Of a DNA stretch of 64,000 bases, positions 33,917 to 64,000 are shown in pieces. The notes beneath the pieces were generated by a model. That model was not told the DNA's origin, made no database searches, and was given only the letters and a program-made list of their open reading frames with translations. The stretch's first letter is position 1, and each line of letters begins with the position of its first letter. Location: NCBI GenBank assembly GCA_036172245.1, contig JAYWIR010000013.1, positions 744,001 through 808,000 on the forward strand, read 5' to 3'. Made by a program: the position numbers and the translations under genes. The DNA comes from Raillietiella orientalis. Lineage: Eukaryota.

Positions 33917-33956
33917 AGACTGTTAATATAAGGCCTATGCCTTATATTAACAGTCT
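33917..33956. repeat. Perfect 18-bp inverted repeat with 4-nt loop
   Basis: AGACTGTTAATATAAGGC-CTAT-GCCTTATATTAACAGTCT. Confidence 0.95.
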
Positions 33957-34961: not shown

Positions 34962-37453
34962 TCAGGCACAAAATTTCACTTCTGAATAAGTACTAAACAA
35001 GGATAATGCAGCAGATGAACCTTCAGGTAACACAATTAAAGTTGGAGTTCCATCCATGATGACATAACTATAGGAAAAATAGCTAAACATTAATTATTCT
35101 GTAAGCTTACTCTGGTGATGAGACAAGTTGTGCCAATGTACTCATGGGATTGACCTGCAGAAGCATCTGCCTATCTCTTGATTCATAGAATAACTGCAAT
35201 CTTTCTGGCTTGTAAATGCCTTCCTCATCCCAATGTGGCTGCTCCTTAAAGACCAGTTCAAGAATGTGAACTAATCTATAAATACTTTGTTTTAAAAAAC
35301 AAATTAAAAAGTAGTCTTGACCTGTCATGTTCAGAGACTTCCTGAATAAAATCTGAAAGTTCAAATTGCGGATAAAGCAAAAGAAGGGGCCATATTAACT
35401 CGTTGTTTTCACTCAAGTAAACTTTGCAGTTGGGTGGTGCAAGTGGATGTGATGGCTTTAAAAAGTCTAGCTCTTCCGTATTTTCAAAATCTTTGAGAAA
35501 TGTCAACTTTCTGCTTTTCAGTTCTGAGAATAATCTCTGATTATCCACAAATGAGCTATTCATTTCCTTTGTATCAAGTTGGTTTTCCTGTTTCGAAATC
35601 TACAAAATATTGATGCAAATGGTCCAATAAGGTTCATATCTACTTTATTCATTTGATTTTTGAATAACAAAGCCTGCTGATGTTTAGGATCCAAAGTTAA
35701 AATTTTATTGCACCATTCCAATCCTTCTTCCAAACGCTCTAAATATTTGCAACATTGCAGACCTCTTACCAAACACTTAAGATAATCAGGCTCAAGATCA
35801 CATGCTTTTTTGCAATCATTTAAAGCAGAGCTGAATATAAAATCACCATTAAAAAAAGCACCCTGTTACTCATTGCATAATATCATAGCAACTCTACTTC
35901 CACCCAGTAAATACAATTCAAAATCATAATTGAAAATTGCCTACCGATAATTTTTCATAATAAAATGCACTGCTGATCTGTTGTTATACAATTTAGCATG
36001 CAATGATTTATCTGAAATGTTTTGTGCGATGCCTTCTGTATAACACAATAATGCATCATCATACTTTTTGTAAGTGAAATAGTTGTTTCCTTCCTTTTTA
36101 TATGTGAGCGACAATTCTAAAAAAAAAATGAAAATTCTACATTCTGATCATCTAATTAATCCAAGATCTTTGAATGCATCATTTATAGACTGGGAATTCA
36201 AGGACATAAAAGTAAATCATCAGGAAAATTAAAATTCATTTTAGTCCATTTCTTCCCAAATACTCTGCACAGTATGTCAACAACCACAATAGAATACCAC
36301 AATAAAATCATGAACAAAATCAAATATATACATTCTCAGACATTGTCAATTCACAATAGCACTAATCATAAAACATTTGTATCAGGAAACAGATGTATGC
36401 AGCACTAAGTGTTCATAATGAGACATTAACATTTTGTACCATGTTTATTATTAGAAAAAATCCTGCAGAGAATAAGCATTCCACCATAATATAAAAAGAA
36501 ACTCTAATAATTATTCCTTGAATCTTTCATGCATGTGGATTATGCATTCTAGGGATTTAATTTTTTTTGCAATGCCTGTATTGAAAAGAAAAATTAATTA
36601 ATCAGACCACCTGAAATTTGATTTCAACTTGGACCAACTTTAGAATGATCTAAGGTAATCACGGTCTTTATTAATAAATTGAATGCTTATCCATATTTCC
36701 ATTTAATATCACGAATGTCTAATTCATAACTTAAATCAGAGAACTTTTTTTTCCGGTTTTTAAGGATTCACACCTCCAAGTGATTATAAAAAGATCAATT
36801 CGAATTTATACAATATTTTTAAAAGCATTGTTTAAAATATTTCCACATTGCAAGTACTAGGGCAAAGAGAATGCTGACTGTACCTTCTGCTGTATTATCA
36901 TCACTACTAAATTTTATTTGCTGCAATGCTTCAAATAGAGGAGGTAATTCTTCTCCATCAGCAAATGGTGCTGACCTAAATGTTGGATGAGAAAGAAGTT
37001 CCTGCAACATAACTTTCTCAACAATAGTCACTTTTTATTTGAATATTAATCTAAGGAAACTTATTGTATCAAATATTTAATTTTTCTTCAAAACTATGCA
37101 GTATTCACTTGAAAGCAAATTGTTCCAATGATTTAGCTGACTTAATCATGCAGTTATTTTGAATTACAGAGTGCAATCTGTAATTCAAAATAACAAGTTC
37201 CACAAGAAATCACTGCGTTCATTATCGTGCTCGCATAGCAGGTCCTAAATGTGATTGAAATCTAAAGAACGGTTAATTCTGACTTTAGAATAAGAACACT
37301 GCTAGAAAGGCATAAGTTTGGAATGAATCATGCTCGCACAACACTGTCACAACAACTTACGTTTGCTATATCTGAAAATTGTCTTCCGCTTTCTTTCGTT
37401 GGAGAATTTTCTGATTTGTGGGCAGGCCCCTTTTCAAAGTCCTCGACGGGCAT
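34962..37453 (-). CDS. TTC4: Tetratricopeptide repeat protein 4 (TTC4/Cns1/Dpit47-like Hsp70/Hsp90 co-chaperone), about 372 aa
   Basis: Exons 37453-37361, 37001-36884, 36116-35945, 35830-35644, 35599-35322, 35275-35111, 35067-34962 sum to 1119 nt, all phases consistent. Motifs: ELLSHPTF..LPPLFEALQQIK, TPR YKKEGNNYF..KKY..A..Y.EG, LYNNRSA, SALNDC, and C-terminal LIWPLLLLYPQ..SDFI and WDEEGIYKP. Confidence 0.9.
37153..37194. repeat. Perfect 18-bp inverted repeat in the first coding-region intron of TTC4
   Basis: GTTATTTTGAATTACAGA-GTGCAA-TCTGTAATTCAAAATAAC. Confidence 0.95.
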
Positions 37454-38029: not shown

Positions 38030-38650
38030 TGAAGTGACTAAATGACAGAAAGGCCTCCGGTCAGTGGCTACGCAAACCTCCACTCGGGCTTTAGAGGACT
38101 CAGGTAAGTTCACCAACCTGACGAGTGACATACGGACAAACCTGGAAGAGGGAAAGGGGAAGAGTAGTGCAGGGAGATGACTAGAAGAGGAAGCGGAAGT
38201 GGGAGATTCTCGGGGTAGGCGGTCCTCCTTGCAGTACTCTCACGATTCTCATGAAGTTGCGACGTGTGTGTTTGATTCCAAGCTGGGTCAGCGTGCCATG
38301 CATCCTTCTCTGGTAACCTGCAGCTGGAGGCGCTCGCTACGACCACGTCATGACACTGCCCGCCGATGGACCATGGCAGTCGGATGCCAATCAAGATCAG
38401 TGTTTTGGAGACGGTGAACTCATCCGATGTGAATATCTTCCTCATGAGGTACGCCAGTTCATCTGAGTATATGTGTAGCTACTTTCCCTTGCTTTGCATA
38501 AGGATGTGCAGTGCAGTGGCATGTACAGGATGGATTGTTCCAGAACGCACCTGTTGCAGCGTGGATCCGCCTTTCTGTCTCGTATGCGACTACGTCGCTG
38601 GTGGCGCGGAAATGCAAAGTGCTCAGTTAGAATGGTATACTGCCACTTCA
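38030..38650 (-). mobile_element. 5'-truncated 3' end of a second L1/Tx1-like element (remnant B), in tandem downstream of remnant A
   Basis: PRCNRCVLEQSILYMPLHC (degenerate CCHC finger of the ORF2 C-terminus), then a C/T-rich UTR and hairpin TCAGGT-TGGTGAACTT-ACCTGA. Shares TTGTCCG and GGTGAACT words with the UTR of remnant A. Confidence 0.5.
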
Positions 38651-41550
38651 GCGGAACACTTTCGTCTCGAGACATCACGGAAGTTCCCGAGACCTCCGTC
38701 TTCCAGCGAAACGCATCTCGTGAAACCCGGTCAGTTTTATTTGAAAATATAAATAAATAAGCGTACAAAAGCTCATAAAACGAGTTCCCAGGGATAAAAA
38801 AAAAAAAAAAACATTGGAAGAGTTCACCGACTCGCAGGTCGGACAAGCAGAGAGTTTGGAACGAAAGGAAGAGGGAAATAAATAAATAAAAAGATAGGGT
38901 AGAAGGGAACAGGAATCTTTCGTAGATGCCGTTCCTTTTTCCTTATAGCCTTCTCTAAATGTGGGTGAGCTCCCTGGTGATTTCTTGGTGCAGATGGATC
39001 CATCTCTCTTAAGTCCTCACGTAGGCAGCTTCTGGGAAGGTGTCTTCAAGTTGCTGCCAGAGCAATGTGGGCTGACAAGATGGCGCACACACAGCCCAAT
39101 GTTGCAGTCGCCACGCCACACGAAAACCCGTTGGATGCGAAGAAGCGTCTCAAGGTCGCTTTCTTGTGTCTTCCAGATGTGGCAGCGCTGGAGCTGCCCT
39201 TCGCCACAATTCCTAAAGGACATCTCAGTCCAGTGCGAGACTGATTCGATAGTTCCTCACCTATAATAGTTCAGGGATCCAAAAACGAGGTTTGGGTGCT
39301 CTTTACACTGGAAACCCCAGTGAAGAAGCAGCACCATTGATGACCTCATTTCAGCAGAAGCATCGAAGCGTTCATACAAAGGTCAGAAAACCACCAGTCA
39401 TGTGGGAGACACAATGAGTTCTCCCCGCCGAAGAAGTCTCTTGGCAGGAAGCAGTGGAGTGGAGGCGTCGACCAGCTCACTCGTTTTCCAGATGTCTTGG
39501 ATTTTATTGACTTCCGCGGTCTTTCAGGAGAGCTCTCACCCTGTAGGCTGGCTGCTGTCATTACTCGTTCTAAAAGAAGACAGCGCTGCAGCCTAGGATG
39601 TGACGGTCAGTCTGGATCACTTCCTATAATCTTGTAGCAGTACTTTCAGAGGATGCTTCCAAGGGATGCCGCGCTGATTCTTCAGGAAACTAAGTTCTTC
39701 TGGGGTCACTTGGAAGGTGAGCACCCAGGTTTCCATAGTCTCCTGAAGAACCTGGGACGGCAGGGGATCCAGCAATGGCACTGCAACAATGAGGCAATTC
39801 TCCTCAAGGGATATCCGTACTTGCTCATCTATATTTTGTGGGCCGCGCAGCAGAATCAAAGCGAGTCACTCAGAATCTGCGCAACAATGTAGGATAAAGC
39901 GTACGGGTGCCCACACCATAGGGTATCCCACAACTTGGCCGAAAGCGTAAGAGTCCTGAACTTCATTTGCAGTTCCACTTTGTCCAGAGTCAGCATTCCC
40001 AGTCCAGCATCCTGATGCGGCACCATCATGTCTTTGAGGCCGTATCCTGGACCTTGCAGGTCCCCACAAGACTTTTCTCAGCATGAAGTTTTCCTGGAGC
40101 TTCACCTGACAGGGGGATGGCAAAAAAAAACAAAGCGAAGAACGAGAAGACGTATTCCTCCTATCTTCTATCCTACACAGCACTTACTGCTGCGAGTAAC
40201 ACGAGCAAAGAAGCCAGACGCTCTCAGTAACCCCTGGGGGACGCTACTTGCATGGACCACGAACGGGTGATTCGTTGCGGAGGGAAATACCTGGAGGAGT
40301 GAATGAGGCCTCTCTGCAGTCCTCGTCCCACAGGTGGCTGGCTGGCTGTCTCCCATGAGCATGACGGAGATAAGGTACTCCTTCAGAATATTATCGCGCC
40401 GATCTCGTCGCCGAGCTCAGCCTTAATTGATGCGTCTTTCTTTTTACTTGGTAGCAGAACTGACCATGTAGGCGTGCAGTACCGTCTCGGAGAGTCCTCT
40501 CTGAGCGAAGCAATGGCAGGCACCACACTGCTCCATGTTGTCTCTTGTGGACGATTCTAGGTGAAAGACGACGTCTTTCATGTCCTCGGGCAAATTGGCT
40601 ACCGTCACCATGGAGCTGCGGTATCCGTTGCTCCGTGGATGTGCCTCTGTGAATGACCCAGCCGCCGAGGTTGCTCTGAGCTCCTAGTCGTCTGATCCTG
40701 CTGTAGCGTCGCACCACTGAAAAACACAGGCGCCCAAGACAAGACTTTGAGACCCTTCGAAATGGTCAGTCGTAACTGAGACCGTTATGCAGACATTCAG
40801 AGAGACAGAAAGCATGTGCGTCCACAATGGGAGGCAGGTTTGGCCGATGAGACCCAAGCCGGCCAGGGAAAGAGGGAGAAGAAGACGGAGAATTCGAGGG
40901 TCCTAGCGATTGCAGCCCATCTGTACAAAGCGTTCGACTGCGCTAGCCATGAGCATTTCCTAGATCTCTTGGAACGCCCTGACCTCCCGCTCACTCGTGC
41001 CCCGTGACTGCACTTCATTTGGCTCTGAGTTACGCACTCAACAGCTCACAAAGACACGGGTCTTTGTGAGCTGTTGCCAGTATGTTATGGAGTGCGGTGA
41101 AATGCTGTCAGGAAAGTGGGTGGCCTGATTCCTACGTATTTCAGAGCTAGAGAGATCATGGGGATAGAAACGGTTGCTGGGAGCGGGATGACAACAAGGG
41201 TAAAAGTGGTAGTGGAAAACAGGGTGATCGCCATACTTGTAAGTATTTCCAAGTAACGGTAGCATTTGGGGAAGGAAAAGGCTGGGGAAGAGTAGCCGTG
41301 CAGGACGTAGTAAGGGTTTCTGCTCCGTTTGCTGGTCCAGGGGTGCTGCATTGACTTTCGGTTGTCGCAAGCTGGATGTGGACAACAGGAGGCGCGCTGC
41401 ATCCGCCGCACCACATGCCGCAGCAGCAGAACGCTTAGTTTTTTCTTTCTCCCACTGAGGTCTCAAAGGCGAACTTATGATTCTTCGTCGCCTTGTTAGC
41501 CCTCACGGCGCTTCTCTATACTTCTTTTCGAACTTTAGGTTCCCTACCTG
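38650..41550 (-). mobile_element. Decayed, internally deleted Tx1/L1-like retrotransposon (remnant A)
   Basis: ORF1-like NGYRSSMVTVANLP...QCGACHCF (about 40630-40495) is followed by post-RT ORF2-like KVLWG..RIR../MVPHQDAGLGMLTL (about 40110-39970). Then come a pyrimidine-rich 3' UTR and AAATAAA at 38742-38736. No clear APE/RT core seen. Boundaries approximate. Confidence 0.6.
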
Positions 41551-42251
41551 GGATCTGCTTCAAAATCTCGAACCCGAAAATCCTGAACTATTTTAATCCC
41601 GAAAGATCATTAAAAAATAAACATGCTTATTCTACAAAGATTAGTACACAAATTTAATTTAATATACATAGTTAATCATATTTATTAAACTACATAGTAT
41701 TAGCAGTAATATCACTGGAACAGATATATTTATCAAGATTCAGTGACATAGATTTTAATAATTACATTGTTGATGTATAAATTAAAATTTTAAAAATAAA
41801 TATATATGCTTATTTCATATATTTACATGAAGATTAATGTACGGATTAATATATATCCTAAAAATTATTGAAAATAGATATATATTCATCTACACATATA
41901 CGTATTTATATTATCTGTGAAGATCCTTGGTGATTGCATCCTTGACATGATCTCACTTTGTGTATTCGTAGTAATCACTTCATTCTATAATCCTATTTTC
42001 CGTTCCCTCCAGGGTTGCGATCAAATGTTGAGGACGGACGGTTGCAAAGTTTAGCTTTCGAATCTTCAGTTTCTTTCATGTTTTTGCTTGATTTAGAAAA
42101 GCATTACATTAGAGATGGATACACAGTTTAGTTTTACTTAAGTTGCCCAGTGTGTATGCTGAGAATTTTGCCAACAATGAGAAAAAATGCGTCAAGTTAG
42201 CAGCCGGTACATTAAGTTTCTTTCCTTAGAATGCTTCAACTACTTTACACA

Positions 42252-44142
42252 TTACTGAATATTATGGAGAAAACCTAAAGCATTAAAGAATACAAAAAGT
42301 GACCATGTAGGAACCACTTTAAAACTGGAACTTACGAAAGGATAAAGAAAATCGTACGGCAGCTTCAAATCAAAATAAGGTGGTCGTGCAAAAAACGCTA
42401 AGGCATGAGGTGTGCAGTCTTTGAAAGTAACTGTTGTAGTTAGGCGAATATTGTGAGGAAACAACGAAGGTGATAGTTTAACAGACATCTTGATACCGAT
42501 AATTTTTGCTTGAGGATTTGCAAAATGACCTACATGTGCAAACAGAATGTGAATGTCAAGATGAGTGGGAATCTTTGTGCAACATATAACACTGTCCATG
42601 CAGTTCTCATATGTTTCATGCATGAGATCTGGAGAATAAATAATATCCACGAAATCTGTGAAATTATTTCCATTATTACTAAAGGGTGCAACTACATTTT
42701 TCTTAGAATTAAGCAATAATTTTAAAATGCTGTCCTGTGCTAACAGACAATTATTGAAAGACTGAATTGATATTGAACAACCAGTAAAAAGGTTGACACC
42801 AAATTGAACTACATGCCTGCGGGTATTTTCTAGGTCACATGTGCTTTGTCCATCAAGCACAGTAAGCCAATCATTAAATACTATTTCACTAGTATTTAAA
42901 TCCTTATGCCCTAGACGTATTGGCATGAATTTCCTGTATCCTATGTTAGCATGGTGGGTAACTGCAGGCTGCCATCCAATCCAAAAAAATAAAACACTGA
43001 ATCTCTGAGATACTGCAGTTCCAAGGACTCCTTTTCCAAGAATATACCGAACTTTTGCTTGTTGAATACCAGTAGTCTCATTATAAAAAAATGAGATTTC
43101 GACTTCATGAATGATATCTTCACATACAGCTTCATCAGATAGACATTTTGGTGATGGAAGTTTTTCATAGGGAACATCAGCACAGTGTGATTTGTTTGGA
43201 TTCAAAAAACAAACAACATATGTGATGGGAACAAAAAACTTCTCACTACAGTTATCTGTAGATATGCAGTTTGCCTAAAATGAAACAATTACAACCCTCA
43301 TACTTGAAGTATTTACCTCAATTACTGCAGAATACAAAGAAATTACAAAGCTTTTCGGGATAAATATCTTAGGACTAAAAGATTCTTCTGAGTGGCATGA
43401 TCTTGTAACTCTCTGCAAACATGATGCAGTCATGTTTTTCTTATACAGTACAGCTCTTCTTCCATTACAAAATAATGAAAAGAATGCTGATGGTAGCATA
43501 AGTGTCTGAGATTTGCAACATGGTGTCCAAATCATTACTTCATCCGAATAGTCTGTTTGCATTTTTACATTAGTTGTATACCATGAATGCTTGTGATGAT
43601 GCAGCATGATTTCATTAAACTGCTCTTCTGCTTTGATAATCTAGAAGAGCACATAAAATATTTCAGCTAAAGCAACACTGAACAGCACTACATGGTACCT
43701 TACCTTGGCTGGAATGGAAAACATTTCATCTGGAAGATTATTGCTGATAGTACAGAACAAGTCAGCAGTCAGGGAATAATCATGGTATTTCAAATTAAAC
43801 AGAAAAAGCCAAGATATATCAATACAAAATTTGTCCTTGGGCAGAGTTGCACTGCAAGCTGAAAAGATCGCCTTTTCTTCATCATCACAATCTGGGTCGC
43901 AACAGCAGTTGACATCACATAAGTTTACCTATGAATCAAATGAGTAATGTGATTGGGCACATTTGAGTTACCTTTAAATCACATGTGCAATAGATTTGAT
44001 CAGCATCCGGCACGTGCCATATCTGCTTCCTTCCCTTGTACGCTTCACTAATGTTCCAGCTATGGGAAAGGAATCTTGAAGGCTTTTCGAGCACGTACAC
44101 AAAGAGTAGCATGGTTATGAGACGAGGTAAATAAATCATCAT
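42252..44142 (-). CDS. tctn-1: Tectonic family ciliary transition-zone protein, about 580 aa
   Basis: Exons 44142-43972, 43928-43704, 43640-43317, 43274-42252 (introns 43, 63, 42 nt, all phase 0). N-terminal signal-like MMIYLPRLITMLLFVYVL, diagnostic CTCDL..CDVNCCCDPDC, VQFGVN..TGC, GHFANPQAKIIG, LPYDFLYPF and a hydrophobic C-terminus. Confidence 0.92.
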
Positions 44143-50545: not shown

Positions 50546-53500
50546 CCTTGCAGGCCAACACAAATCTTCACATATCTTATCAAGAATTACCAACATTGGG
50601 TATGGGTTACGCATATTTTATTTCGGGAAACTTTCAACCAGCAGTCTATATTAGTAGCGCTGTAACATTATGCCCAATGTACAAGATTCTGATAAAATAC
50701 AAATTGCTAAGTTACATCCATTAAGTTTTCTCGAGAATTCTTCTGTCACTCCTTTTTCGTCTCTCTTCATGTAGGTGATACTCATTTGGTTTCACAATGT
50801 TGTAGTTTAAAGAAAGAATAATTTGGAAATGTAAATATGTGTTGGATTCGAAACCCCCTTTCTGGCTATCATCGTTTGAAAATATTCTATCAAAATGGCA
50901 ATACTTTTCACAATAAAGATTTCCCTTTTCATTCTCTCAGTATGCTTCTTACTCACGATGGGAATCTTTCACAGTCTCCTCTTCACCTGAATGAGATTTT
51001 TTTAAAAAATTCTAAATAATTCTGAGATTTTTTCTAATGTTGAAATCTTTTCTACGGTGCTGCTTCACTTTGGACGTAATATTAAAATGTTATGAAAAAT
51101 CCTAACCTCTACAATAAAGCAGGGTAATTATTTTATCACATCGACTCATTTTCAAAAAGTTAACCATCTTAAAATTACATAATATTCTGAAATTAGGATC
51201 TCCAAAGATTCAGTTTATTCCAGGTCTTGGAATTATCATTTTCATAATCACATCCGACTGATTTATTCATTTCTCCTATTATCAACTGTCAATTCAGCTA
51301 ATCCACTTTGTCCATTACGGTGTTTATTCTTCTAAAAGATACGTTACAACTTTCTACTTTTATATTTGGAACACCGTCAGGACTAAAACTTGATCTTACA
51401 ATTTACAGAGGATGGGGAAGAACATACAAGATGCGTGCCAAAGAAAATGCAAGTGTTTTAAAATACAAGTGATTAAGAAGAAATCCCACAAGTGAAAAAC
51501 AGTAATGATAAAAAACGATGGAAAACGGAGATGCTTTAGATCTCTTTGGAAAGTTAAACTGTTGATTAAAACAAAGTCAGGACAAACTGAAAGCGTTAAA
51601 AAACTAAACAGAAGTCTAGAAAATCAGTTTCTTAGAAATGGGACTTATGTAAGGCGGAAAGAAAGAAAACAATGCCAGATAGAGTGAAGTTCAATGGACT
51701 TGATTCGTGAGGCAGTTCGTCTAAAAGAAGAAACTGCAAATATTAGCAATAAGATGCATGTGAGCAGAAAGTTTTCAAAAGAAATAGAAATAGACAAGAA
51801 ATCCAAAAAGAAATTTTTCGGAAATGAAAATGAGAACAAACAATATTAAAGCCATGAATAGGAAAAGCATGAATGCGTTTTAAAGACGTGTCCAAATGAG
51901 AGATGTTGGTCTATAACTTGTATCAAAAAAAAACAAAGATCCCCATTCATAAATGGAGTAGATATTGAAACCATTATCCTGTTGATTCTTAATGCACTGC
52001 ATTTGGGAAAATTGCAAAAAGATTTTCAGTATTTAGGTTTACTTTGATAAGTTTGGTTAAGGTCTATCTATTCTTTAAATACAACAGGGAATCCATAAAT
52101 TAATAACCTTAGACAAGGTTCTTAGACCTTGTTCTTAGACATCGTTTTCTTGCATGCCACGAGTGTCTGCATCCAAAAAAGATCGAACTCTTTGAAAGAT
52201 GTTCAGAGAGGAGTGCATAGAGAACTGTCACTCGAAAATTGAGTCCAAGGAAGAATCATTCAGTTTCAGTGGAAACGACTAATTCAATTCTGATGAGGTT
52301 TTCTGAAAAATGACGTGACTGATGCCAAACAAAGGCAAGCATTTATTCAATCAGGGTAAGACAGAAATCAGATCGAATGATGTGATCGCACCTTATTAAA
52401 AACCCATGGAATGAGGTGTATAGGGGAACGTAAAAAACATAACACTAAAAAGTGTCTAAACTAAAATCACAGGTGAATAGGTTAATGTATACAATCCCAT
52501 AATAAGTCACATGTCTAGAAACATAGTGAATACATAATAAACTGGAAGCAAAGAATTGAAAAATTGACAAGAGCAGCGTTTAAGAATCGTACTGCAAAGC
52601 GTATGGCAAAATGTGGATACCAATAGAGAATGGTAAAACCTCTTTGTGGAGGAGATGATTTTTTGCGTCAGAATTGCAAAAAGTGTTAGAGATATTTTAT
52701 AGATAGAACCTGAGAAGTTGAAATGATTAAAATGAGGAAGACATTACTACATGTAAGATCCACACTCTTCATGGTCACTCAGGGTGGAAACCATATTGGC
52801 ATTGATGACACAAGACATGATGCAAAGCTCACATTCGCATCAGAAATGCAAAGAACATATTTATGTCTTGAAGGGAATATATTAATTTTATTTCTGCATT
52901 TGAATTCTCTCATAACAAATGCAGTCATTTCGTAAGATCAGAAGTATACTTTACAATGAGATGGTCAACTTTTAGTGCGGATGACAGGAGAACCATTTTG
53001 TTTTAATTCGTGTACTTTTTTGTGTGCCATGATCTAAATCATCAGGTGTAGCATGCTGGTATCCCTAATTTGCTCTGACTTTCTTTCGCTTGTCTTTCTC
53101 AAATTTTTTCAGGTCTTTTTGAAATCGATACTGATTGAATCCCTCTAACTATGTTTTCTGGCTTCCTTTCTTTTTTCCATATTGCTCAATTCCCTTGGGG
53201 GTCATGCAAAAAACGCATACAAAAAAAATGATTATTTGCTCTGATTCTGTAATCTTGGTTCTATGGAATAAGCTTTGCATCATTGCTGTAGGATCGCGCA
53301 TCGTAAATTTGTCTGCTGTCAGGCTGTCTTTTGGTCTTTAAACCATGGCAGCTCGTTGCAATAATAAATACAGGGGTGTGCTGCAGTGGACTGCTCTTTT
53401 ACTAAATTTTTCCCTCCTCCCCTCCCCTCCCCACCTTTTTTTTTTTTTTTTTCAGAAATAAACCCTGACATGACGTTTGCTGAAGCAATGTGGATGAAAA

Positions 53501-53940
53501 GGCCTAAGCGCGAGAGACCAAAAACGAAGTGGATGCGAAGTGCCGACGAAACCGGATCCAAGCCATTGAACAGACTGGTGTGCGTGCCACGGGCTAACCG
53601 AGAGACACGGTACGTGTCCTAGCAACTGCACCGTCCACGGTTACGAAATCACCTTGGAGCCCGTTTCTTTAACCTAAGGAGGTGCCCCTTTTTTCGACAG
53701 AGGATGCACCACTGCCATCTTACAAGCGAGCACCACGCCAGTCGCTGAGCTGGGTCGGCATAATTACCAGCGTGCGCAGTACAGATGGGGTTTCTGAAAA
53801 ACAGGCGTGGCTGTTGGTAGTTGAAAACTTTACCTGATACCCCGCCTAGGCAGCGTGAATACCGCTGCCGCGGCAATTTTTGTGTGCTCTGACGGGGCAA
53901 ATAACTGTGAAAAGTGAGTGAGTGACCAGCGTGGTGCAGG

Positions 53941-55146
53941 ATGGAGGCGCCGAAACCACCCAGATCGGCCCACCACAAAGACCCCCATCCCAAGAGGAGC
54001 GAGAAAATGCGTTCGGTGGAGGTAGAAGCAGGTCCATCGACAGAGCAAGCGACGACAACAGCAGCTGCGAAAGTAGGTCAGGCACCCGCATCGCCATCGT
54101 GCGCTAGCGTGGCCGCGTCCGCCCCATCCGTCAAGCCCGAGTCTTTCGTGGGGAACAGCGTAATCGTTGGAAGAGAGATAACAAGGGGTTCAGGACCACT
54201 GAGAAAGTTCGGCCCCGAAGTGACCGTCGTCACCTTCCCCATGGGCCGACTCACCAACAATGCGGTCCGCGACATTTACCTCGCGATCCACCGCAAGAAG
54301 ATCGATTTCAAGTGGATCAAGGCCATCGTTCCGTTCGTCGGGGGATTTTCCGTATACACGGACAATCTCGAAATCATCGACGACCTAGTGGACAACGGAC
54401 TGGAGATCAGTGGAAGGCTCCTCCGCGGAGTATCGGAACACGCAGCCGCGACGGTGTACCTGTCAGGCCTGCATCCGATGACGGAAGGAGACGCCGTATG
54501 GGAGTACTTCAGCCAATATGGCGATATCGTTTGCTTCAGGGAAACCGTCTACCACGAAGACACCTTCGGGGGAGAAGCCATCCTGAAGCTGAGGATGACG
54601 AAAGGGGCGAAGATCCCAAGCGTCGTTCGCATCGACGACCATTCGCCCAACGTGCGTGTGGCATACCAGGAGAAGCCCGACTTCTGCCGCACCTGCATGG
54701 TCTTCGGACACAGGGCGGCGACCTGCTGTGACCGCAAGTGCAGGCACTGCGGCAAACCCGGGCACCCTGAAACCGAGTGCGAGCGCCCCAAGCGATGCTA
54801 TTTTTGCAAAGCTGGAGGCCATGAGAGGAAGGATTGTCTGCGGTACAAGGAGTGGCAAGCCTTCCAAGAAGAAATGATGAAGCAGAGGAAGCAAAACTCT
54901 GCCGATACACCGGAGGAAGTGCCAACCCCCTCCCCGGCGTCGGATACCCCCGCAAAAGGCGGGAGGACGCCGGTAAAGGAGAAGAAGACCGTGACCCGGG
55001 AAGAGCCTGCAACTAGGGCAGCACCCGCCCCCACGACTCCCGCGAGGGAGATCAGGAGAAAAGCTACAGCCGAAGAGCTGCATGCGGAACTCGACGACCT
55101 GCTCTCCTCAATTAATGAGATCGCTAATAAGCGGCAGAAGGAGTAA
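53941..55146 (+). CDS. Retrotransposon ORF1 (RRM-like domain plus three CCHC zinc knuckles; Tx1 ORF1/ZCCHC3-like), 401 aa open frame
   Basis: TVYLSGLHP..VWEYFSQYGDI (RRM-like); CRTCMVFGHRAATC, CRHCGKPGHPETEC, CYFCKAGGHERKDC; low-complexity P/T/A/K tail. Confidence 0.85.
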   Translation: MEAPKPPRSAHHKDPHPKRSEKMRSVEVEAGPSTEQATTTAAAKVGQAPASPSCASVAASAPSVKPESFVGNSVIVGREITRGSGPLRKFGPEVTVVTFPMGRLTNNAVRDIYLAIHRKKIDFKWIKAIVPFVGGFSVYTDNLEIIDDLVDNGLEISGRLLRGVSEHAAATVYLSGLHPMTEGDAVWEYFSQYGDIVCFRETVYHEDTFGGEAILKLRMTKGAKIPSVVRIDDHSPNVRVAYQEKPDFCRTCMVFGHRAATCCDRKCRHCGKPGHPETECERPKRCYFCKAGGHERKDCLRYKEWQAFQEEMMKQRKQNSADTPEEVPTPSPASDTPAKGGRTPVKEKKTVTREEPATRAAPAPTTPAREIRRKATAEELHAELDDLLSSINEIANKRQKE

Positions 55147-55515
55147 GCATTCCAGCACTCGAAAGATCTGCTGGAACGTCTAAGGCCAAAAGCCATTTCG
55201 CCTCAGGAGGCGATGCATCTAGAGGATCAGGTGTATGTCAAGGTGTATTTCCCCCTCCTATCCTTTCGGAAGAGGACCGAAAAAGGGGGAGGAAAGACCG
55301 CTGGCGCCGAACAGCCCCGAGGCGAGAGCAACCCCAGAAGGGGAAGAGAGTGCAGCGAGCTGCTACACCTCGGAGGAGGATATCCCCGACAAGGAAGTAG
55401 CAGCGGTACAACAGACGAAGAATCAAAGCAGGAGGAACACGTGCGCCTAGAAAATCAAAGCATAACTGGCCAAGAAAAAGAGAAGAATGAACTAAGTGAC
55501 TCAGCCGTCCCCAAA

Positions 55516-58500
55516 TGGTGCAGTTCCTTTCGTCGATCCGAAAGATCGGATTCGCTTCTTGGAACATCAACGGGTGGACGAAAAGGAGGTATATGAAGTG
55601 ACTGTTGCGGCAGGAAGACATCTTCTGCTTGCAGGAAACGCACTCCATGACGCCGGAAGCATGCGAAGAACTTGCGAGAGGTCTGCAAGTGGACATCCAC
55701 GTCAACTAGGGCTTAATCAATCGCAAGGGCGTCGCCAATCTTGTGAAGCAGACCCTCTACCCAACTGTCCTGGAGATATTTGTTTTGATGGTATCTATCT
55801 ATCTTCCGGACCACGCCATCCTCAGGATGATGTGGTCCGGAAGCGTCCACCTCTTCGTGGTGAACGTGTACGGACCACTGTTCAGGAAGAAGCCCTTCGT
55901 GAACGGAGTTGGTAAAGAGCAAGGTCACCTCGAAGGACGTCGTCGTGATTCGTGGGAGACTTCAACGTTCGTCTGGACGGCAGTCGCCACGACAAGACGG
56001 GCGCCCACAACGCCTACCGGCACATGGTGGGCGCACTCGCCCTCCTATGCACGGGGGCGAGCATGACCTGCATCGACCACGTCATGTATTCAGAAGCTCT
56101 CGTCAATCGCATCCAGAGGATCCGAGAACTAAACACCGGAGTCTCGGACCATCCCCTGCTGGGATAGAAAATGGTGTCGAGGAATCCCAGGAAGGAAAAC
56201 TCAGTAGCCCGGGCGGCGCTCATCTGCATGCCCGAGTGGTACGAGCGTTTCCCCCCGTACTAGCGCGTCGTGGAGACCATCCTGGCCACGACCCACATCC
56301 TGCGCGTGCACAATTGTGACACCCTCAAACACACCCTGCATCTCTTCTCGAACCTGCAATACGGCGATCCTATCCGGCGATATACCTCCACGAGGAAGCG
56401 TACAGGGAGATCCAACAACTCTACCCCTCCCAATCTGCGTACTGGGAAGAGTATCAGAGATGCTTCCTTGACAGGAGCGTCAAGAAAGAAATCGGGCAGC
56501 TGGAAAAACGAAACCTGGAGACGAACATCTCCCACGTCCGTTACCAGGATCAGGACTGCAGAACCTCGAACCAAGTGCTCGCTGACTTCCAGCATCACTA
56601 TTCCGAGCTGTTCAGGAAAAGGAATCCGGATCCGGGAGGCCAGGAGCGGATTCTCTGCAAATTGAAGCTCCTAGCCCCCCAAGAACTACATGACCTTGAT
56701 CAGGACTGCACAGACGGCGAGGTCAAAGCCACGTGTCAACGGGCTGCGCGAGGACATGGCAGTGGATCCCGACAGCGTGCCGTCACGCATTACGAGAAGC
56801 ACCTGCCTGCCTACTTGCGCCTTTTCCGTCAGCTGCTAGACTGCACCCGCAGAAAAGGACGACCGCTCGCCTCCTTCCACCCCAGCAGGAGGAGGCTACT
56901 CCCGAAGAGCGGCGGGACCTCCGCAATGTGACTCAGTGGAGGTCCATTTCCGTCCTGAACTCGGACGCGAAGTGAATGGTAAAACTCTGGGCCAACCGGC
57001 TGAAGAAATCGCGGAATGCGGTAGTTCCTCCCACGCAGACGTGTGGCGTGCCAGGCAGACGCATGTGGAACAACGTCAAGTGCTCACCAAGCCCTTCTGG
57101 GATACAACCATATGCCTGGTAACGACCTGGTGCTGGGCTCCACCAACCTGGAGAAGACTTTGGACTCAGTGGACCACTCCGTGCTGCTGAAGATTCTGGG
57201 GAAGCTGGGATTCGAAGGGAAATTTCTGCATTACGTGGCATACCCTGGAGGAGATCAACTTCACGATCAGCGTCAACGAGCTCGCGTCGCAGAACATCCA
57301 GATGGGGAGAGGAGTCCGGCAGGGAGATGCCCTGAGCCCCCTGCTCTTTGGTCTATACATGAGAGGCGGTGAGCACCTTCGTCGACCACGAGAGCAGAAA
57401 CCAACATCACGCACCTGGCCTACGCCGACGATCCGCTTTCCGTCATGTCGGACGAGCGGGATCAGAAGACATTCCTGGACATCGTTCAGGCCTTGAAGTG
57501 CTGCCTTGGACTCGGAAGGTGAATCCCAGCAAGTCGCATCTGCTCGCCGTGGGAATGCCGGACGTCACTGTCCTCGCGCAGCTTGGCTAGAATGGCCAAG
57601 ATGCGCGAAGAATCCAGCCAATACGTCGAAACCTCCTCGCAGAAGGACGAGGTCAATCTCAGGAACGGTATGATGGCGTCCAAGTTCCTCTTCGCCGCGT
57701 CTTTTCTCTCGATTCCTTCGATAACGGCAAAACAGCTAGTTTGTCATCCAGAGGAATCTTGTCTGGAGCGGCGTTAGAAGACCCAAGACAAAGTTGAAAT
57801 ACCTGTGTCGCTCGCGCACGGAAGGAGATACCAGCATGCGCAACATCGCTAATGCCGTCAAGCTCCAGGATCTCAGACATCTGGTCTGGATCGTCAGCGC
57901 ATGGGACGAGTGGCTCAAGCATGGCGCTCACCTCGAGTGGCCGTTCACGTTCCACCGTGCCTTCGCAGGGCTGGTGCACGGGACCGACGGCCTCATGTCC
58001 GCCATGGCGCTCACCGCGGGCGACTGGAAGAATGTGGACCCAACGTGGCCACGAATCCGGCGTCTCGTAGGGAATTTGAAACTGAAAATCGTTTCAAGGA
58101 GCGGGGAGCTCTGCGGAAAAGAGCTCGCCAAGGTGATCCCGCTGTTTGTCAGCGCCCCTTGGGAAACTGGAATATAGATCCAGAAGACAAAAAAGATGAC
58201 CATGCAGACATGCGAGCGACCGTCGAGCAGCGTGGTCATCCACTCACGACAAGTGCTTGCGTGAAGAGGATAATAGAGGGGAGACGCATAGGATGCGTGA
58301 GCTTTGGCAAGACCAAGGCACCTCGTGGTCCAGGATGAACCCCCAAGTAAACAACCTAAGGATGCCGGAAGACGTCGCACCATCCAAAGCGAAGGGAAAG
58401 ATGAGATGCAGGCTAGGCAATGTTACCCTCTACCCACAGGCGATCGGGACGGTCCTGTGGAGATCCTCCTTGTCGCCTAGCATCCAGGATTGCCTCTCGA

Positions 58501-58700
58501 TGATCTACTATGTTGGCATCCTGTGCAGCACGAGGCTCCAACACTGTGGCGGGAACTCCGGTGACGACCAGTGTCCAGCGTGCGGGTCGATAGAAGACAC
58601 TGGACATGACAACTGACAAGGACAACTGACGCATGCACACGTGTGCAATGCTCTGAATATTTTATCAGGATTCCTGAAAAAGGCATCCTTACAAGAATGC
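55516..58700 (+). pseudogene. Retrotransposon ORF2 pseudogene (AP endonuclease, reverse transcriptase, C-terminal zinc finger)
   Basis: APE motifs SWNING, LQETH, VVNVYGP, GDFNV, IDHVMYS, SDHPLL. RT motifs WRSISVLNSDAK, LEKTLDSVDH, GVRQGDALSPLLF, LAYADD, VNPSKS. C-terminal CPACGSIEDTGH. At least ten stops/frameshifts. Confidence 0.92.
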
Positions 58701-58924
58701 AGAAGACACCCACCAGCACACAGTGATCCCTTCCTGACTCCCTCCTCCCTCTTTTCCAATTTTTTGTATTTTTTCCTGTTCGTTTGTCTCCCATTCCCCT
58801 GTGCTGCCGTGGCGAACCTCGCTGGCCTGCGCGCCGGTTCTTGGCAGGTCCTTTTTGTACATTTTGTAATGCGGAAGGATCACGCATCTTGCCACTGACC
58901 TCTATGTTTATTTTTAACAAATAA

Positions 58925-59845
58925 ACACCCCGGCGTGACCGGGTGTCAAACCCCGCAGTACGACGCTGATCGGCCTGTTTGGGAGCGCCACCGGTGGGAG
59001 CCAGAGGTCCCCTTCGACTGATCGGGATCGGAGGTGACCTTCCGTGGTCCTCCCAGGAGCCCTCCGGGGTGAGAATGAAAGTCTTGCTGTAGAGCTGATG
59101 GCATCTCTCCGGGATGTGAAGAAGCACGCCACACCCTTCGGAGAACGCTCTTCAGGAAAATCCTTCGGAAGGAAGCGGGCAGCCCCGCCGGAGGAATGAC
59201 TCCCACGAACCGGGGGCCCCTCCGGAGAGAATGGAGACGAAGGAGTCCCCATTCTCTTTAGCGTATGGGGAAGGGGACTCCCTTCCCCCGGAGTCTCTCT
59301 GGACTCGTGGGGTGGTCCCCTACAACTTGAGCTGAAGAAGAGCTACGTGCACCCGCGAAGGGGCGTGGAACGCTGTTGGAGAGGAGGCGGGCGGTTCCTT
59401 AGCACTTGACGAACCCCCAGGAAGAAGGGAGGTACGAAACGGCGGTGAGGAGGCCGTGGAGAAGCGCGGCCCGCTGAGGAAGAGGCGCGCGCGCAATGCG
59501 ACCGCTTCAGTAGCAGCGCCCGCCGCTTCTGCCTCGCTGGCGTGGCTACGCGCGCAGTTTCGGGCGGGGAGGGAGGGGAGAGTGTCCATCTCGGTGCAGG
59601 GCGAGCGCGAGATGCGGGGTCACCCCCGCCTGGGGGCCAGCGGCTGCGGTTGCGCCGCCCCCTTCGCCCGCGGGACCTCTCGCAGCGCACCGGGGAGCTG
59701 AGCGGGTGGGTGCCTCGCGGAGTCGATTCGCCGGCGCGAAGGCGGGGAAGGCGACCTTTGAGACCCCGGGGATCGGGGCACGGTCCAGCCCATTTGAGGC
59801 CTGCTGAACACTTCTTATGGAAGAGAGAGGTACAAGTTGATAAAA
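58925..59845 (+). other. GC-rich, hairpin-dense non-coding module directly after the retrotransposon polyA signal (putative structured RNA/repeat)
   Basis: Stems read by eye: ACACC..GGTGT (58925-58946), ACCCCGC/GTGGGGT (58950/59313), CGGAGG/CTTCCG, CCTCCGG/CCGGAGG, AGAGAATGGAGAC/GTCCCCATTCTCT, GGGGAAGGG/CCCTTCCCC, GAGTC/GACTC. Ends in GTTGATAAAAAA. No credible ORF. Confidence 0.5.
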
Positions 59846-62231
59846 AAGCCTTGTTGGTTTTCTGTTCTTCATTTAATTACTTCTGGAGGGAGGAGGCACC
59901 TTCGTCTGGAAGCTCCGAACAGGAAACAATTGCTTCCTGACTGAATCGACTGTTCCGTTCGTGATCAGTGAAATGTGCCAGTGTTTTGGGTGCGTGAAGA
60001 AAGCACGATGGCTCCTTGGAACACGAATTGTTTGAAGCCTGGAAGGAATTCTCATCCAAGGGTCTACTTGTTGTGGCGACGAAATTCCTCCGCGTCCGCC
60101 AGAAGATTGCGCGCGCGCGCGTGTGGTACTGATTTCGTAAACGAGTACTTCGATCTTCGATATTAGCGACCTCTGTTCCCGCTTATGGTGAACTGTAGAC
60201 GTAAAAGAGTTGCAAATAGAGTCCTGTCGGGTGTCGAGTGGAAGATTGTCTGCTGGGTGGATTGGAAGGGAGGCGTTTCCACCCGTCACGTTTCTTCCCT
60301 GGCAGTAGCACCCTGCCATTCAGAAGGGAGCTCTCCGGACTGTTCTCCATATGTACTGTACACTTTTCGCTTTACTCAAAAGCCACGGACAGATGGAAAT
60401 ACGCAGTACACGTAGGTTGTTGTATCTGCTCCTGAGGACAAGCCGAGGCGGAAAAGAGCCTCGGGTCGGCAAACATATTCAGTGAGGCACGACTGGAATT
60501 TGTCCGAGGTGGATCTCATGGTCGTCACTAACGCATACATGAGTGAAGTTTCCCTTTAAACGGGATGGTAGTGCACCAGAGTCACGCTGAATTGATACAG
60601 GGGTATAATTTCCAGCAGGATTATGCTGACCTGGGGCTCCGACAGAATGACTCGGTTCAGTTGATTGAGCGACGGAGTGGACTGGGAGTTAAAAGCAAGA
60701 ACTGTGTCGTGGCACAGAGGATCAGTTAACAACAAACAACTTTATTTTATTAAGGACACAGACATCCTGTTTTGCTGATATAAGTTCCAAATTAGGTTTC
60801 AGGTAACGTTACAACTAAATATACGATCCCAGACTCATGCGACCCAGCTTGATGTCAAAACTTCAGTGGTTCCCAGTAAAATCCGAAAGTTCTTCTTCGG
60901 AAAGCCATTTCCTGCAGATTCACACTATGAAAATTGCTTCTGTGTTTCCTTCGGTCAAACTTTGATGGCATAAAATTGGATCTTGGTCAGCATCCACTCA
61001 TACCACTGCACAAGCTTGGCATATGCGTCAGTGGAAAAAAACATTTCCTTTTCAGCCTGGGGACGTCTTCACAGTACTGCCACTGTCAGCCAATTTCTTA
61101 AGTGTCTAAGAGACCCTGGGTATTTGCGTGCAGTTCTGTCTCCACAAGTTCTACTCTCAAAAAGCAAATGAATTAGGATCTCAAAACGCAATCGAAAAGC
61201 AGGAACAGAATAAAAACCAGAAACCACCCACATACGAAATGCTACCATGAGTATTGCACATGTAGCATGCCGTTTGCATGCATTACTGCCCGCATTGCTT
61301 TCAATGCATGTGAAACAGATCACTGCAAGAATCTACGCAAATTTTTCAGGGAACGTACATTTGCCAATTCCGTTCGCTGTAAAGCAAAACGTGCAAAGGG
61401 AAGAAATCGATGTATCCCGAAGCAGGAACATCCTGGCTGCGGACTTTGGTGGAACGACTCAACTGGGCTGGCTAAACACACACGCACAAACCGTTAAAAC
61501 GCAGACAGAATATGTGAATGGCATATCAAGTCAGAGCTAATCAAATATAAACGAATAACTATTTCCGTATTTTGATCTCCGAGAGTGAATTACCTTTATT
61601 AATAGTATAATTCACATAAATAAAGCAAAATTTGGAAAGTGCTGACTATGTCCCTTGCTACATCTACATAGGGTTGTGTTAGGGAACCAAGCCGAAAATC
61701 CAGCACAACAACCCTTGTTTTTTATACACAACAGCCGAAACAGAGTTCGAAATTCATCAAATGGATCTTCTGCTCACTGCACGCCAAGACTTTCGTTAGT
61801 CCTTAATTTTGCATTGGTGGAATTTATCACATATTGTGCAAGTATTCCTAAGCCAATCCTACCACAATATCTCATCACTTCATTCAAGCAAAATGGATAA
61901 AGCTTCGCGAATTAGTTCCTGGATACGAAGACGCTAGTATCTCGAACATGTTGGCACGAAGAAAGCAAATACTGTTTCAGGACAAGGGGCTAGCATTCGA
62001 GAAAGAGATCAGGCAATAAATATAACCGTTTTCTTCATGGTTTGCTATTCCGTTTTTATTGAGCAAAACACACTAAATAATTGTTTTCTAAATCGTATTA
62101 CCATTGCTAGCATCCCATATAAGAAATTAAAATGACTTAGCACATCTAATACAATACACATTGGTAGTGAAGCGCCTCATGAGAAATGCTGAGTTTTCAT
62201 TACCATTGAACTATGTGAGGAAAAGTGATGC

Positions 62232-64000
62232 TTAAGAACCATTGAACCTTCTGAGTACTGTCTGCTGATAAATGATACATGAGTCACTCAGACTATGAAC
62301 AATCTGAAAGGGCATGGGTTGAGGAGAAAGTCTTCCACAGATTAAACTCGTATGCTTCCCTCTCTTCGGCCTTGTGGTTGTGTTTGTGGTTGGAGATACT
62401 GAACAATCACATTCTTCTTCTGTGTATGAATCATCACTAATTTCCATTGAAAACTTAACATTATTAGATCCCAGATCTTCCTCTGGTATCGTCCTGTAAT
62501 TAAGAAATCATGGATTTAGGGAAAACAAATGACCATGCCACCTTGTAAAAGTATCTTCACTAGGGTCTGTCATGACACTAGCTAGATCCTCCAGAGAGGC
62601 ACATAGATTTTCAGAGTTCCGATGAAGACGACGCTGGATCAGACCTTCCATTAGCTGGAAATCTGTGGTTTCAGCAGATTTCAGCAGCCGACTTTCTAAT
62701 CGGTGGATAATTTCCGGGCTGGGGAACTTGGGAAAAGGATGCTGCTGCTGATTCATCACAATGGCAGAAGTGCAGGAAATGAACTGTTAACCGGAACAAC
62801 AGAACTAAAAACCTTCAATTGCTGCTGCAAAGGTTGATGAAATTGCATCAAACAAAAGGACTCCAATTCATCAGTGATGCTGGTGTACTCGGACCGTAGG
62901 TGAATAGGAGTGCTTCTTGGAGCAAATACCTACATAGAGACATGATGCACAGTAAAGAGGAAAATTGAAACTGTTACAAAATGAAAGCAACCTATCAACA
63001 AGAACTAAAAGACAGAACCTGAATAGCGGGGATAACCGAATTGGAAGAATCAGATGAAAGATTAGAAGAGGCCACCTCTCCCATCCAGCCTGAGACTAAC
63101 TTATTAAAGTTGGGGACAGCAAACCGGTTCTGCAAAAGTACCCAAGTAAATACAAGGTGTTAAGAATGAAGAAAGGACTAGAGGAACCCAACACTGAAGC
63201 ATTACTCACCAAGGCTGAGTGATTACGGCGCATATTATACCGAGGGACAACACCAGTCACAGAGGGCCACTTAATGGGATGGTCAAAACTTGAAACTGCT
63301 ATTTGTATCAATGTAAAATGAAACAGCTTCCATCTAATTGGGTTTGTAAACACTTACAGCTGATCTTGGAAACAGGATGGTGCTTCCGCCATTCCACATT
63401 TGAGTTGCAACTTGATGAATCATGACATTTTGAAATTGGTACTGAAGCATCCACATCACTAGGCATGTTAGAATCTGAAGCCCCTAATTTGGAAATGTTT
63501 GCATAACAGTCATCTTTCTGCTGAGTCAAAACACTAGGAGCAGTCACTGTATGGGGCAAATGAGATTTCTGATAAGTTGATGTACTGGGAGGATGAAGAT
63601 TTTGCAGTAATTGATATATTTGTGTCTCAGTTTGCTCCAGCTGCGATAACCGAAACTCTAGATTCTGAGCAGTTGCTCGATTCATCTTATCCTTGAAATA
63701 AAAATCATCCAATCTCTGATGGATGCTATCAACAAGATCCAAGGTAGTCTGCACACGTTGTTCCATCGATGCCAATCTTTTTTCTTCTTGCTCGCCGAAA
63801 TAGCCTTCCACACATTCTTCTTCAAAGTCATGGATTTCTTCTAGAGCTTCTCCTTCTAAAAACAGTTTTAATCCAAAATCGTAAGTGGTCTCTCGTCTCT
63901 TGCATCGCTTCCAGATATATTTATATAAAATAAACATGTGGCTGAAAATGATGAGGGGAGGGGGTAGAAATGGTTTCTGCTCATATTCCATAACAACCAT
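62232..64000 (-). CDS. Trpm: TRPM-family cation channel, C-terminal cytoplasmic part (5' portion beyond the right edge)
   Basis: VMEYEQKPFLPPPLIIFSH, GLKLFL, HDFEEECVEGYF and a coiled coil, then EYTSITDELE and AE..DFQLMEGLIQRRLHRNSENL. Exons approx. 64000-63358, 63298-63210, 63129-63019, 62929-62813, ~62747-62542, 62493-62232. The last junctions and the stop codon are less certain. Confidence 0.9.

Follow-up and report, generated by a model that had tools for sequence, protein, structure and literature searches.

We analysed a 64,000-nucleotide stretch of the Raillietiella orientalis genome (contig JAYWIR010000013.1, positions 744,001 to 808,000; hereafter the window, with coordinates counted from its first base). 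Within it, a decayed non-LTR (long terminal repeat) retrotransposon, or long interspersed nuclear element (LINE), lies on the plus strand and is termed element B; a GC-richer stretch on the minus strand, remnant A, can be weakly identified as its relative. A preliminary description of this DNA had proposed that both sequences reach an AAATAAA word and run on from there into a common, GC-rich and densely structured module of about 900 nucleotides (nt). We find the observation to be genuine but of far smaller extent than was claimed, since only the first ~100-180 nt after AAATAAA are common to A and B, and its explanation to be ordinary; the value that remains lies in a sequence resembling U4 small nuclear RNA (snRNA) on the 5' side of element B. 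The evidence comprises the window, one low-coverage public DNA sequencing run (X1) and sequence libraries, and the comparison of copies involves two, element B and remnant A, both inside the window.

The retrotransposon and its possible relative

The coding part of element B and the body of remnant A are laid out as follows:

53941-55146, plus strand: first open reading frame (ORF1) of element B, intact, with CCHC zinc knuckles, beginning at the ATG at 53941
55500-58650, plus strand: ORF2 of element B, decayed, with many frame shifts and stops; outer limits read from the frames
38743-41590, minus strand: remnant A, decayed and GC-richer (GC 0.46-0.55)

Element B occupies a CpG-rich block at about 53.9-58.9 kb (GC 0.53-0.59) in a window whose background is AT-rich (GC about 0.30-0.40) and CpG-depleted. 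Its ORF1 belongs to a 406-codon open frame (53926-55146), the knuckles of which match retroviral nucleocapsid chains (E 1.1e-5) and reach E 0.72 with Pfam zf-CCHC; the nearest ESM Atlas clusters are CCHC/ZCCHC3-like (score 0.94, a lead only). Within ORF2, an endonuclease fragment at 55949-56164 matches Pfam Exo_endo_phos (E 0.0029, 17.9 bits against a cut-off of 24.5), and a search of the PDB gave no endonuclease match for the element. Reverse transcriptase (RT) fragments at 57191-57519 match RVT_1 at E 0.02 and 0.12, scores that fall under the curated Pfam cut-offs because the reading frame of B is broken. In the PDB the RT piece matches R2Bm (26.4 bits, E 5.2e-5), with R2 proteins recovered and no L1 protein at E <=10, over only ~42 aligned residues. 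A search of the full protein library returned 14 representatives at E <=0.001, all on the RT core of B, and tblastn with 13 of these 14 proteins (a 5100-residue one was left out) placed matches at E <=0.01 on that core only; word-index protein searches with the ORF2 linker piece, ORF1 and the RT piece gave no match. The association of a CCHC ORF1 with weak fragments of an endonuclease/exonuclease/phosphatase (EEP) domain and of an RT therefore indicates, at the sequence level, that element B is a decayed non-LTR retrotransposon.

In remnant A, no Pfam family appeared at E <=0.1, tblastn with the frames of B gave nothing at E <0.01, and the 13 library proteins gave nothing at E <=0.01. At the DNA level, a block of remnant A (39743-40042) aligns with a block of B (57019-57318) at z 8.2 over 30 shuffles, in a gapped alignment that scores only 28.5. 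The sequence thus weakly suggests that remnant A is a relative of element B. Inspection of this region also revealed a plus-strand frame (40780-41004), on the strand opposite to remnant A, that by eye resembles RT motif 3 (..LYKAFDCASHEHF..) and has no Pfam match at E <=0.1; the make-up of remnant A is therefore uncertain, and it may be composite.

The proposed 3' tail of element B and remnant A

The words on which the preliminary description relied are present in both sequences. Element B reads AAATAAA at 58919-58925 with no run of A after it, then TGACCGGGTGTCA at 58936-58948 and CGGAGGT-gac-CTTCCGTG at 59029-59046; remnant A, on the minus strand, reads AAATAAA at 38742-38736, then TGACCGGGTTTCA at 38733-38721 and CGGAGGT-ctcgggaa-CTTCCGTG at 38698-38676. 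The features of the two 3' regions are:

58651-58918, plus strand: pyrimidine-rich and T-rich first part of the 3' untranslated region (UTR) of element B, from its sequence
58919-58925, plus strand: AAATAAA of element B, read as internal to the 3' UTR from A/B homology on both sides
58926-59105, plus strand: common 3' tail of element B, from alignment with remnant A
59106-59845, plus strand: GC-rich remainder, flank or another decayed repeat (GC 0.62-0.69, CpG observed/expected 0.8-1.0)
59151-59375, both strands alike: cluster of short near-perfect palindromes with the strongest fold of the module, from inverted repeats and window z
38736-38742, minus strand: AAATAAA of remnant A, from its sequence
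38636-38735, minus strand: common 3' tail of remnant A, from alignment with element B

The 13-mers that follow the two AAATAAA words agree at 12 of 13 positions, the single best value among the 1572 AAATAAA site pairs in the window (57 scorable sites). This word pair alone is only modest evidence, because 29 of the 1572 pairs reach 11/13. A colinear chain of exact words between A and B totals 29 bases, a length reached by 7 of 2000 dinucleotide shuffles. Gap-tolerant local alignment of A offsets 1-100 with B offsets 1-180 yields a score of 66 against a null mean of 28.9 (sd 4.7, maximum 47.2), which none of 400 shuffles reached; nor was it reached in 500 trials under 10-, 25- and 50-nt block shuffles with two gap schemes, the shuffle mean lying between 29 and 33 (sd about 5) across null models. 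Eight negative-control regions gave z values of -1.0 to 1.6. Because shuffles never attain the score and the controls are flat, the likeness of A and B after AAATAAA is judged from these alignments to be real.

Upstream of AAATAAA the two 3' UTRs also resemble one another (z 4.4; 0 of 500 dinucleotide shuffles), but with block shuffles and other gap penalties z falls to 1.1 for a 300-nt block, indicating that this upstream likeness is largely compositional. As far as the alignments can tell, the extreme 3' tail is the best-kept non-coding part of the two elements. Its start is not in register: 10 bases separate AAATAAA from TGACCGGG in B (58926-58935) and 2 bases do so in A. The tail of B, moreover, holds up to three diverged CTGA(C/T)CGG units, which are visible by eye in the sequence and the MAFFT alignment and were not reported by an automated repeat search. 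These units account for the large gaps that open when A is aligned, and for the preference of MAFFT to align remnant A with the second unit of B. The offset junction and the second-unit alignment together point to insertions, deletions and duplications within a UTR, rather than to a precise border between element and target.

Beyond A offset 100 and B offset 180, six of six block tests are at chance (A 100-230 vs B 180-330, z -1.5; A 230-400 vs B 260-500, z -0.8; A 400-735 vs B 400-920, z 1.8; A 230-735 vs B 260-920, z 0.2; A 650-1000 vs B 900-1400, z 1.4; A 100-650 vs B 180-900, z -1.0), so that about 740 of the 920 bases are not common to A and B. A 14 x 19 matrix of 150-nt A/B blocks carries signal in its first cells only, and each of its few other high cells is matched in about 12 of 1000 shuffles, which is what 266 cells should produce. 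The proposal that both copies continue into one and the same module holds, then, for ~100-180 nt after AAATAAA (0 of 400-500 shuffles) and gives way over the remaining ~740 nt. Two candidate colinear matches farther out, 59859-59883 with 38051-38031 and 60072-60090 with 37988-37968, were rejected (about 12 of 1000 shuffles each, regional z 1.4), as was an 8+11 base match between 59745-59766 and ~41.47-41.50 kb, noticed by eye and absent from the local alignment (z 0.8).

The remaining stretch, 59106-59845, has no BLAST match elsewhere in the window, and BLAST comparison of the entire module with the window returned no other copy. The open frames of the module have no Pfam match and are rich in R, P and S, as expected of GC-rich non-coding DNA, and Tandem Repeats Finder reports only a 19-nt, 2.1-copy array (59562-59580, score 31). 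In both elements the tail is followed by 640-740 nt of GC-richer DNA within the AT-rich background. A metagenome pattern scan for the junction produced 41 loci, none like the LINE or the module, and one 38-nt BLAST match at 18.4 kb; these were set aside as chance.

A search of public sequencing runs listed X1 and no RNA run. Run X1 contains 7% of the words of the window, in short contigs of depth 2-4 with no joints; 4 of 39 contigs are at least 99% alike to the window and 28 of 39 are less than 90% alike, and stretches without cover are not taken as evidence of absence. Among the pieces listed (8 of 40), the only one on the module is an exact contig over 58932-59089 at depth 3.8, and the bin 59340-59806 has depth 0. 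Diverged pieces (80-90% alike) fall, among those listed, on the LINE body and on 58769-58856 (depth 6.4), with none on the module, which hints weakly that the module does not form a multicopy family.

Folding gives no reason to treat the module as a special RNA. As a whole, its 920 nt fold at z -1.99 on the plus strand and -1.96 on the minus strand (20 shuffles each). What had been described as ~900 nt of dense, nested hairpins scores, in 150-nt windows, no differently from the LINE body (mean z -0.94 plus and -1.09 minus, against -1.05 with sd 1.44 over 32 windows), and only 59151-59375 and 59376-59525 stand out. The former, the palindrome cluster, reaches z -3.6 to -5.0 on the plus strand and -2.8 to -5.3 on the minus strand, with examples such as the arms 59226-59238 and 59245-59257 and GGGGAAGGGGACTCCCTTCCCC at 59267-59288; it falls outside the tail common to A and B, which itself folds no better than chance (z -0.83 for B and -0.40 for A). 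The hairpin CGGAGGT/CTTCCG, said to keep its stem while changing its loop, is indeed present in both copies, but its stem letters are identical in A and B and it therefore shows conservation, not covariation; RNAalifold on the two sequences reports 5 'compensatory' pairs, which rest on an uncertain alignment. Searches of Rfam gave no family at gathering score in the whole window, best values of E 0.15-8 to unrelated microRNA and small RNA models in a permissive scan of the module, and nothing better than E 4 on the stretch downstream of remnant A. With no covariance-model match better than E 0.15, neither a self-cleaving ribozyme nor another Rfam structured RNA was recognised in the module.

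The U4-like sequence on the 5' side of element B

Immediately upstream of ORF1 lie two further features:

53741-53897, plus strand (same as element B): sequence resembling U4 spliceosomal snRNA, matching the full Rfam model RF00015 (1-138)
53898-53905, plus strand: CAAATAAC, a possible target-site duplication that resembles CAAATAAAC at 58918-58926

The U4-like sequence scores 40.2 bits, under the gathering score of 46, with E 1.1e-7 in a permissive scan of the 561-nt leader region and 1.3e-5 on the window, and is the only Rfam match at E <=0.01 in the whole window. It ends 43 nt before the ORF1 ATG of element B. It is well preserved over the 3' half, whereas the 5' half is poor or decayed; the central region and the word AAUUUUUG, which we take to be the Sm site, agree with the RF00015 consensus. 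On these grounds the sequence is described here as U4-like, or as a pseudogene. About 53814-53901 is covered in X1 by a contig of depth 25.9 that continues upstream into unlike sequence; judging from its loose end and from known U4 sequence, this contig presumably represents the canonical multicopy U4 of the organism. A 15-base word that the loose end of the contig shares, with 1 mismatch, with 59741-59755 of the module was considered as a link between module and LINE leader; it is probably chance, because the contig was judged to be the multicopy U4-like repeat of the organism.

By simple arithmetic, some four 7-mers should match by chance between the two boundary regions of element B, so that only the position of CAAATAAC is suggestive. 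Exact repeats of at least 9 bases between the two sides of B number 10, against about 8 expected, and candidates for a target-site duplication next to the U4 start have p values of 0.013-0.13. Near remnant A, no U4 was found by the whole-window Rfam search (E <=0.01), by a local scan of 40600-42300 or by U4 word searches, whose sole match is the copy at 53.8 kb. Nor do A and B resemble each other in their 5' flanks (z 0.5). The U4-like sequence could be a template-switch chimera, the mark of an insertion beside a U4 gene, or a feature of the family.

Farther upstream on the plus strand, (CCTCC)n is followed by T17 and then by CAGAAATAAA (53416-53462), just before a GC-rich block that runs on to the U4-like sequence; the succession has the look of a LINE 3' end. 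The 278 nt that separate the T17/AAATAAA site from the U4-like sequence (53463-53740, plus strand, GC about 0.5) have no Rfam or Pfam match and nothing alike elsewhere in the window; they could belong to a U4 gene copy as its promoter, or be a third piece acquired by template switching. The string T17-AAATAAA-CCCTGAC at 53436-53474 (AAATAAA site 53456) was considered as a third junction and rejected: compared with A and B, its downstream side gives z 1.0 and -1.7 and its upstream side z 0.4 and -0.5, and shuffled sequence attained its word-chain scores in 949 of 2000 and 2000 of 2000 trials.

The LINE and the GC-rich module sit between a Tectonic-domain gene and a TRPM-domain gene. The Tectonic domain (DUF1619, E 1.3e-14) lies in a host exon at 42252-43274 on the minus strand; remnant A is downstream of this exon on the same strand, with a GC content of 0.46-0.55 against 0.35-0.37 for the exon. 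The TRPM tetramerisation domain (E 3.2e-5, 24.4 bits against a Pfam cut-off of 26.6) lies in a host exon at 63311-64000 on the minus strand, in a frame that runs open at the window end. All-against-all BLAST of the window found no dispersed repeat family present twice at the DNA level, and only five short palindromic self-matches (38-46 nt, 88-95% identity):

55803-55843: palindromic self-match
41039-41076: palindromic self-match
37153-37194: palindromic self-match
33914-33959: palindromic self-match
11720-11764: palindromic self-match

Interpretation and comparison with known LINEs

The reading that we favour, at a probability of roughly one half, is that AAATAAA is internal to the element, that the 3' UTR of the family runs ~100-180 nt further, and that the remainder is an unshared GC-rich flank. 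The tails of A and B would then be the 3' ends of two old, decayed and distantly related copies of one non-LTR lineage, whose transcript and DNA copy would run on past AAATAAA for ~100 nt in A and for ~180 nt in B, the latter lengthened by the CTGA(C/T)CGG duplications. Both copies would end without a poly(A) run, as is common to many LINE clades. By analogy with the so-called 'stringent' LINEs, the RT may recognise this tail to start target-primed reverse transcription (TPRT). The stretch 59106-59845 would be GC-rich neighbouring DNA with a local palindrome cluster, outside the shared unit, and the U4-like sequence 5' of B would most readily be explained by template switching at the end of reverse transcription. 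An internal AAATAAA is the most parsimonious choice because colinear likeness between A and B lies on both sides of it, and because it leaves room for the indels, the duplications and the shift of the junction. Conserved 3' tails are, in any case, an ordinary feature of LINEs. The earlier proposal of a long structured 3' extension is thereby reduced to an ordinary 3' UTR tail, shorn of a ribozyme or special fold (no Rfam match better than E 0.15, folding at chance).

Several observations weigh against this reading. The tail is far better kept than the coding region, where tblastn between A and B finds nothing at E <0.01, and this fits a shared insertion target as well as it fits a constrained tail. 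The 640-740 nt of GC-richer DNA after both tails are left to coincidence or to repeats lying in clusters. The 3' end is fixed by no target-site duplication (marginal candidates, p 0.013-0.13), and the pair CAAATAAC / CAAATAAAC could be a duplication that places the tail outside the element. The comparison, moreover, involves two copies only, with the LINE identity of remnant A weak, and the recognition of the tail by RT is drawn by analogy only.

The main alternative is that the LINE inserts at a preferred site, around CAAATAAA(A)C, in a repeated host or transposon sequence, of which the tail would be the downstream part and, at element B, the upstream part would hold a U4-like gene. This arrangement would suit a tail better kept than the coding part, a same-orientation U4-like sequence that ends 43 nt before ORF1, and the resemblance of CAAATAAC (53898-53905) to CAAATAAAC (58918-58926); Tx1-clade LINEs are reported at U2 genes, microsatellites and DNA transposons in the relevant sections of PMC4494074 and PMC4640811. 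We nonetheless regard it as unlikely. No U4-like sequence was found near remnant A, A and B differ by 8 bases in the place of the junction, the 5' flanks of the two are unlike (z 0.5), and the 7-8 base duplication candidate has to be set against the ~four 7-mer matches expected by chance. In X1, furthermore, the contig on the tail is only 3.8 deep and that on the U4 part 25.9, so that the tail is not the common flank of the U4-like repeat. In the comparison of A with B, no single snRNA target was seen to flank the two copies at a matching position; the insertion-target proposal does gain one point that the preliminary description had missed, the U4-like sequence 5' of B. Less probable still is its narrower form, in which the lineage would target U4 snRNA genes, or repeats derived from U4, at their 3' end, inserting at CAAATAAA(A)C, with the tail as the U4 downstream flank.

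The remaining alternatives fare worse. The sequence after AAATAAA might, as the preliminary description had also offered, be the 5' leader of a next LINE copy in a head-to-tail arrangement, or else a 5' tag of the kind seen where the 3' end of one element drives the next copy. We judge this improbable: no ORF1-like or ORF2-like sequence follows the module or the tail of A (tblastn, Pfam), the module is unlike the leader of B itself, the 53456 junction has no significant likeness to A or B, and downstream copies truncated at their 3' side are unusual for LINEs. In its favour stand the T17, AAATAAA and CCCTGAC succession at 53436-53474, upstream of the leader of B, and the tandem transposable-element dimers, arising from double insertion, described in bioRxiv 10.1101/158386. 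A long structured RNA, whether a ~900-nt ribozyme or TPRT element or an unrecognised structured RNA gene or short interspersed nuclear element (SINE), would be compatible with the whole-module fold (z about -2), the strong local hairpins at 59151-59375 and the CGGAGGT/CTTCCG hairpin in both copies. However, that fold favours neither strand, the LINE body folds just as well, the strongly folding part sits outside a common tail that folds at chance, no Rfam match is better than E 0.15, the stems are identical and thus show no covariation, and diverged copies are found neither in X1, among the pieces listed, nor in the window; this explanation is largely refuted and very improbable. Hardly credible, finally, is a chance likeness between two unrelated A/T-rich 3' regions, one of them perhaps the 3' UTR of the Tectonic-domain gene. 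AAATAAA is a common word (57 scorable sites) for which 29 of 1572 pairs reach 11/13, and remnant A, which is not securely a LINE, lies downstream of the Tectonic-domain exon on the same strand; against this, none of the 400-500 shuffles in any of four null models attains the alignment score, the negative controls show no signal, and the GC content of remnant A (0.46-0.55) departs from that of the exon (0.35-0.37).

At present the finding chiefly corrects annotation: an internal AAATAAA means that an AATAAA-like word is not to be taken as the end of a LINE, and the common tail would define the true 3' boundary, which is needed for finding partner SINEs and for dating copies. The U4-like head could prove the more important of the two. 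Should the U4-like head recur in other copies, it would mark either a new snRNA-gene target or a lineage carrying a U4 head, and it bears on the origin of snRNA-headed retroposons of the SINEU type. If the lineage did home to U4 genes, U4 would be a new snRNA target for a LINE with an apurinic/apyrimidinic endonuclease (APE), beside the U2 of Keno.

Known systems provide a measure for each of these readings. The HeT-A and TART elements form head-to-tail telomeric LINE arrays with a promoter at the 3' end, and a head-to-tail arrangement here would resemble them in that the sequence after the 3' end of one element belongs to the next; in contrast to those arrays, no ORFs follow, neither an array nor a telomeric setting was seen, and the candidate third junction failed. 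Eel UnaL2 is an example of a 'stringent' LINE with a conserved 3' tail. The present case is like such elements in that a short non-coding 3' stretch is kept between diverged copies with no poly(A) run, and differs in that neither short repeats at the end nor a defined terminus came to light, the tail has no excess fold, and the comparison concerns two copies known from sequence only. Short 3' tails are also shared between LINEs and their partner SINEs (PMC4494074 section 3, citing Kajikawa and Okada 2002).

Among target-specific LINEs, section 3 of PMC4494074 describes APE-type elements in U2 genes, microsatellites and DNA transposons, and members of the Tx1 clade appear in passages of PMC4494074 and PMC4640811 as Tx1 in Tx1D, Keno in U2 genes and Tx1-Mar in Mariner-N4_AMi. 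With these, element B, for which a Tx1/L1-like affiliation is only putative, has in common that it is a LINE, tentatively of the APE type, with a CCHC ORF1 beside snRNA sequence, and that similar-looking 3' flanks occur in two copies. It differs in that U4 is found at element B only, the junction of A and B is imprecise, and the flanks are only ~75-80% alike by eye, with indels. According to the passage of PMC4640811 on snRNA genes, the elements reported by 2015 to target such genes were limited to Keno and Utopia (U2), Dada-U1 and Dada-U6, and U4 is not among the targets it gives. A literature search found no paper joining 'U4 snRNA' with non-LTR terms, which is not proof that none exists.

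The nearest parallel to the U4-like head is the addition of snRNA sequences to 5' ends by template switching, as in snRNA-LINE chimeras and SINEU (PMC4494074 section 18, citing Buzdin 2002 and Garcia-Perez 2007). Whereas the human cases mostly join U6 to a 5'-truncated L1, element B joins a U4-like sequence to a complete ORF1; it also differs in that no flanking duplication was found, and in that the 5' half of the U4-like sequence is far more decayed than the 3' half. What element B and these chimeras have in common is the joint itself, in which the 3' end of an snRNA sequence in the same orientation is attached to the 5' side of a LINE.

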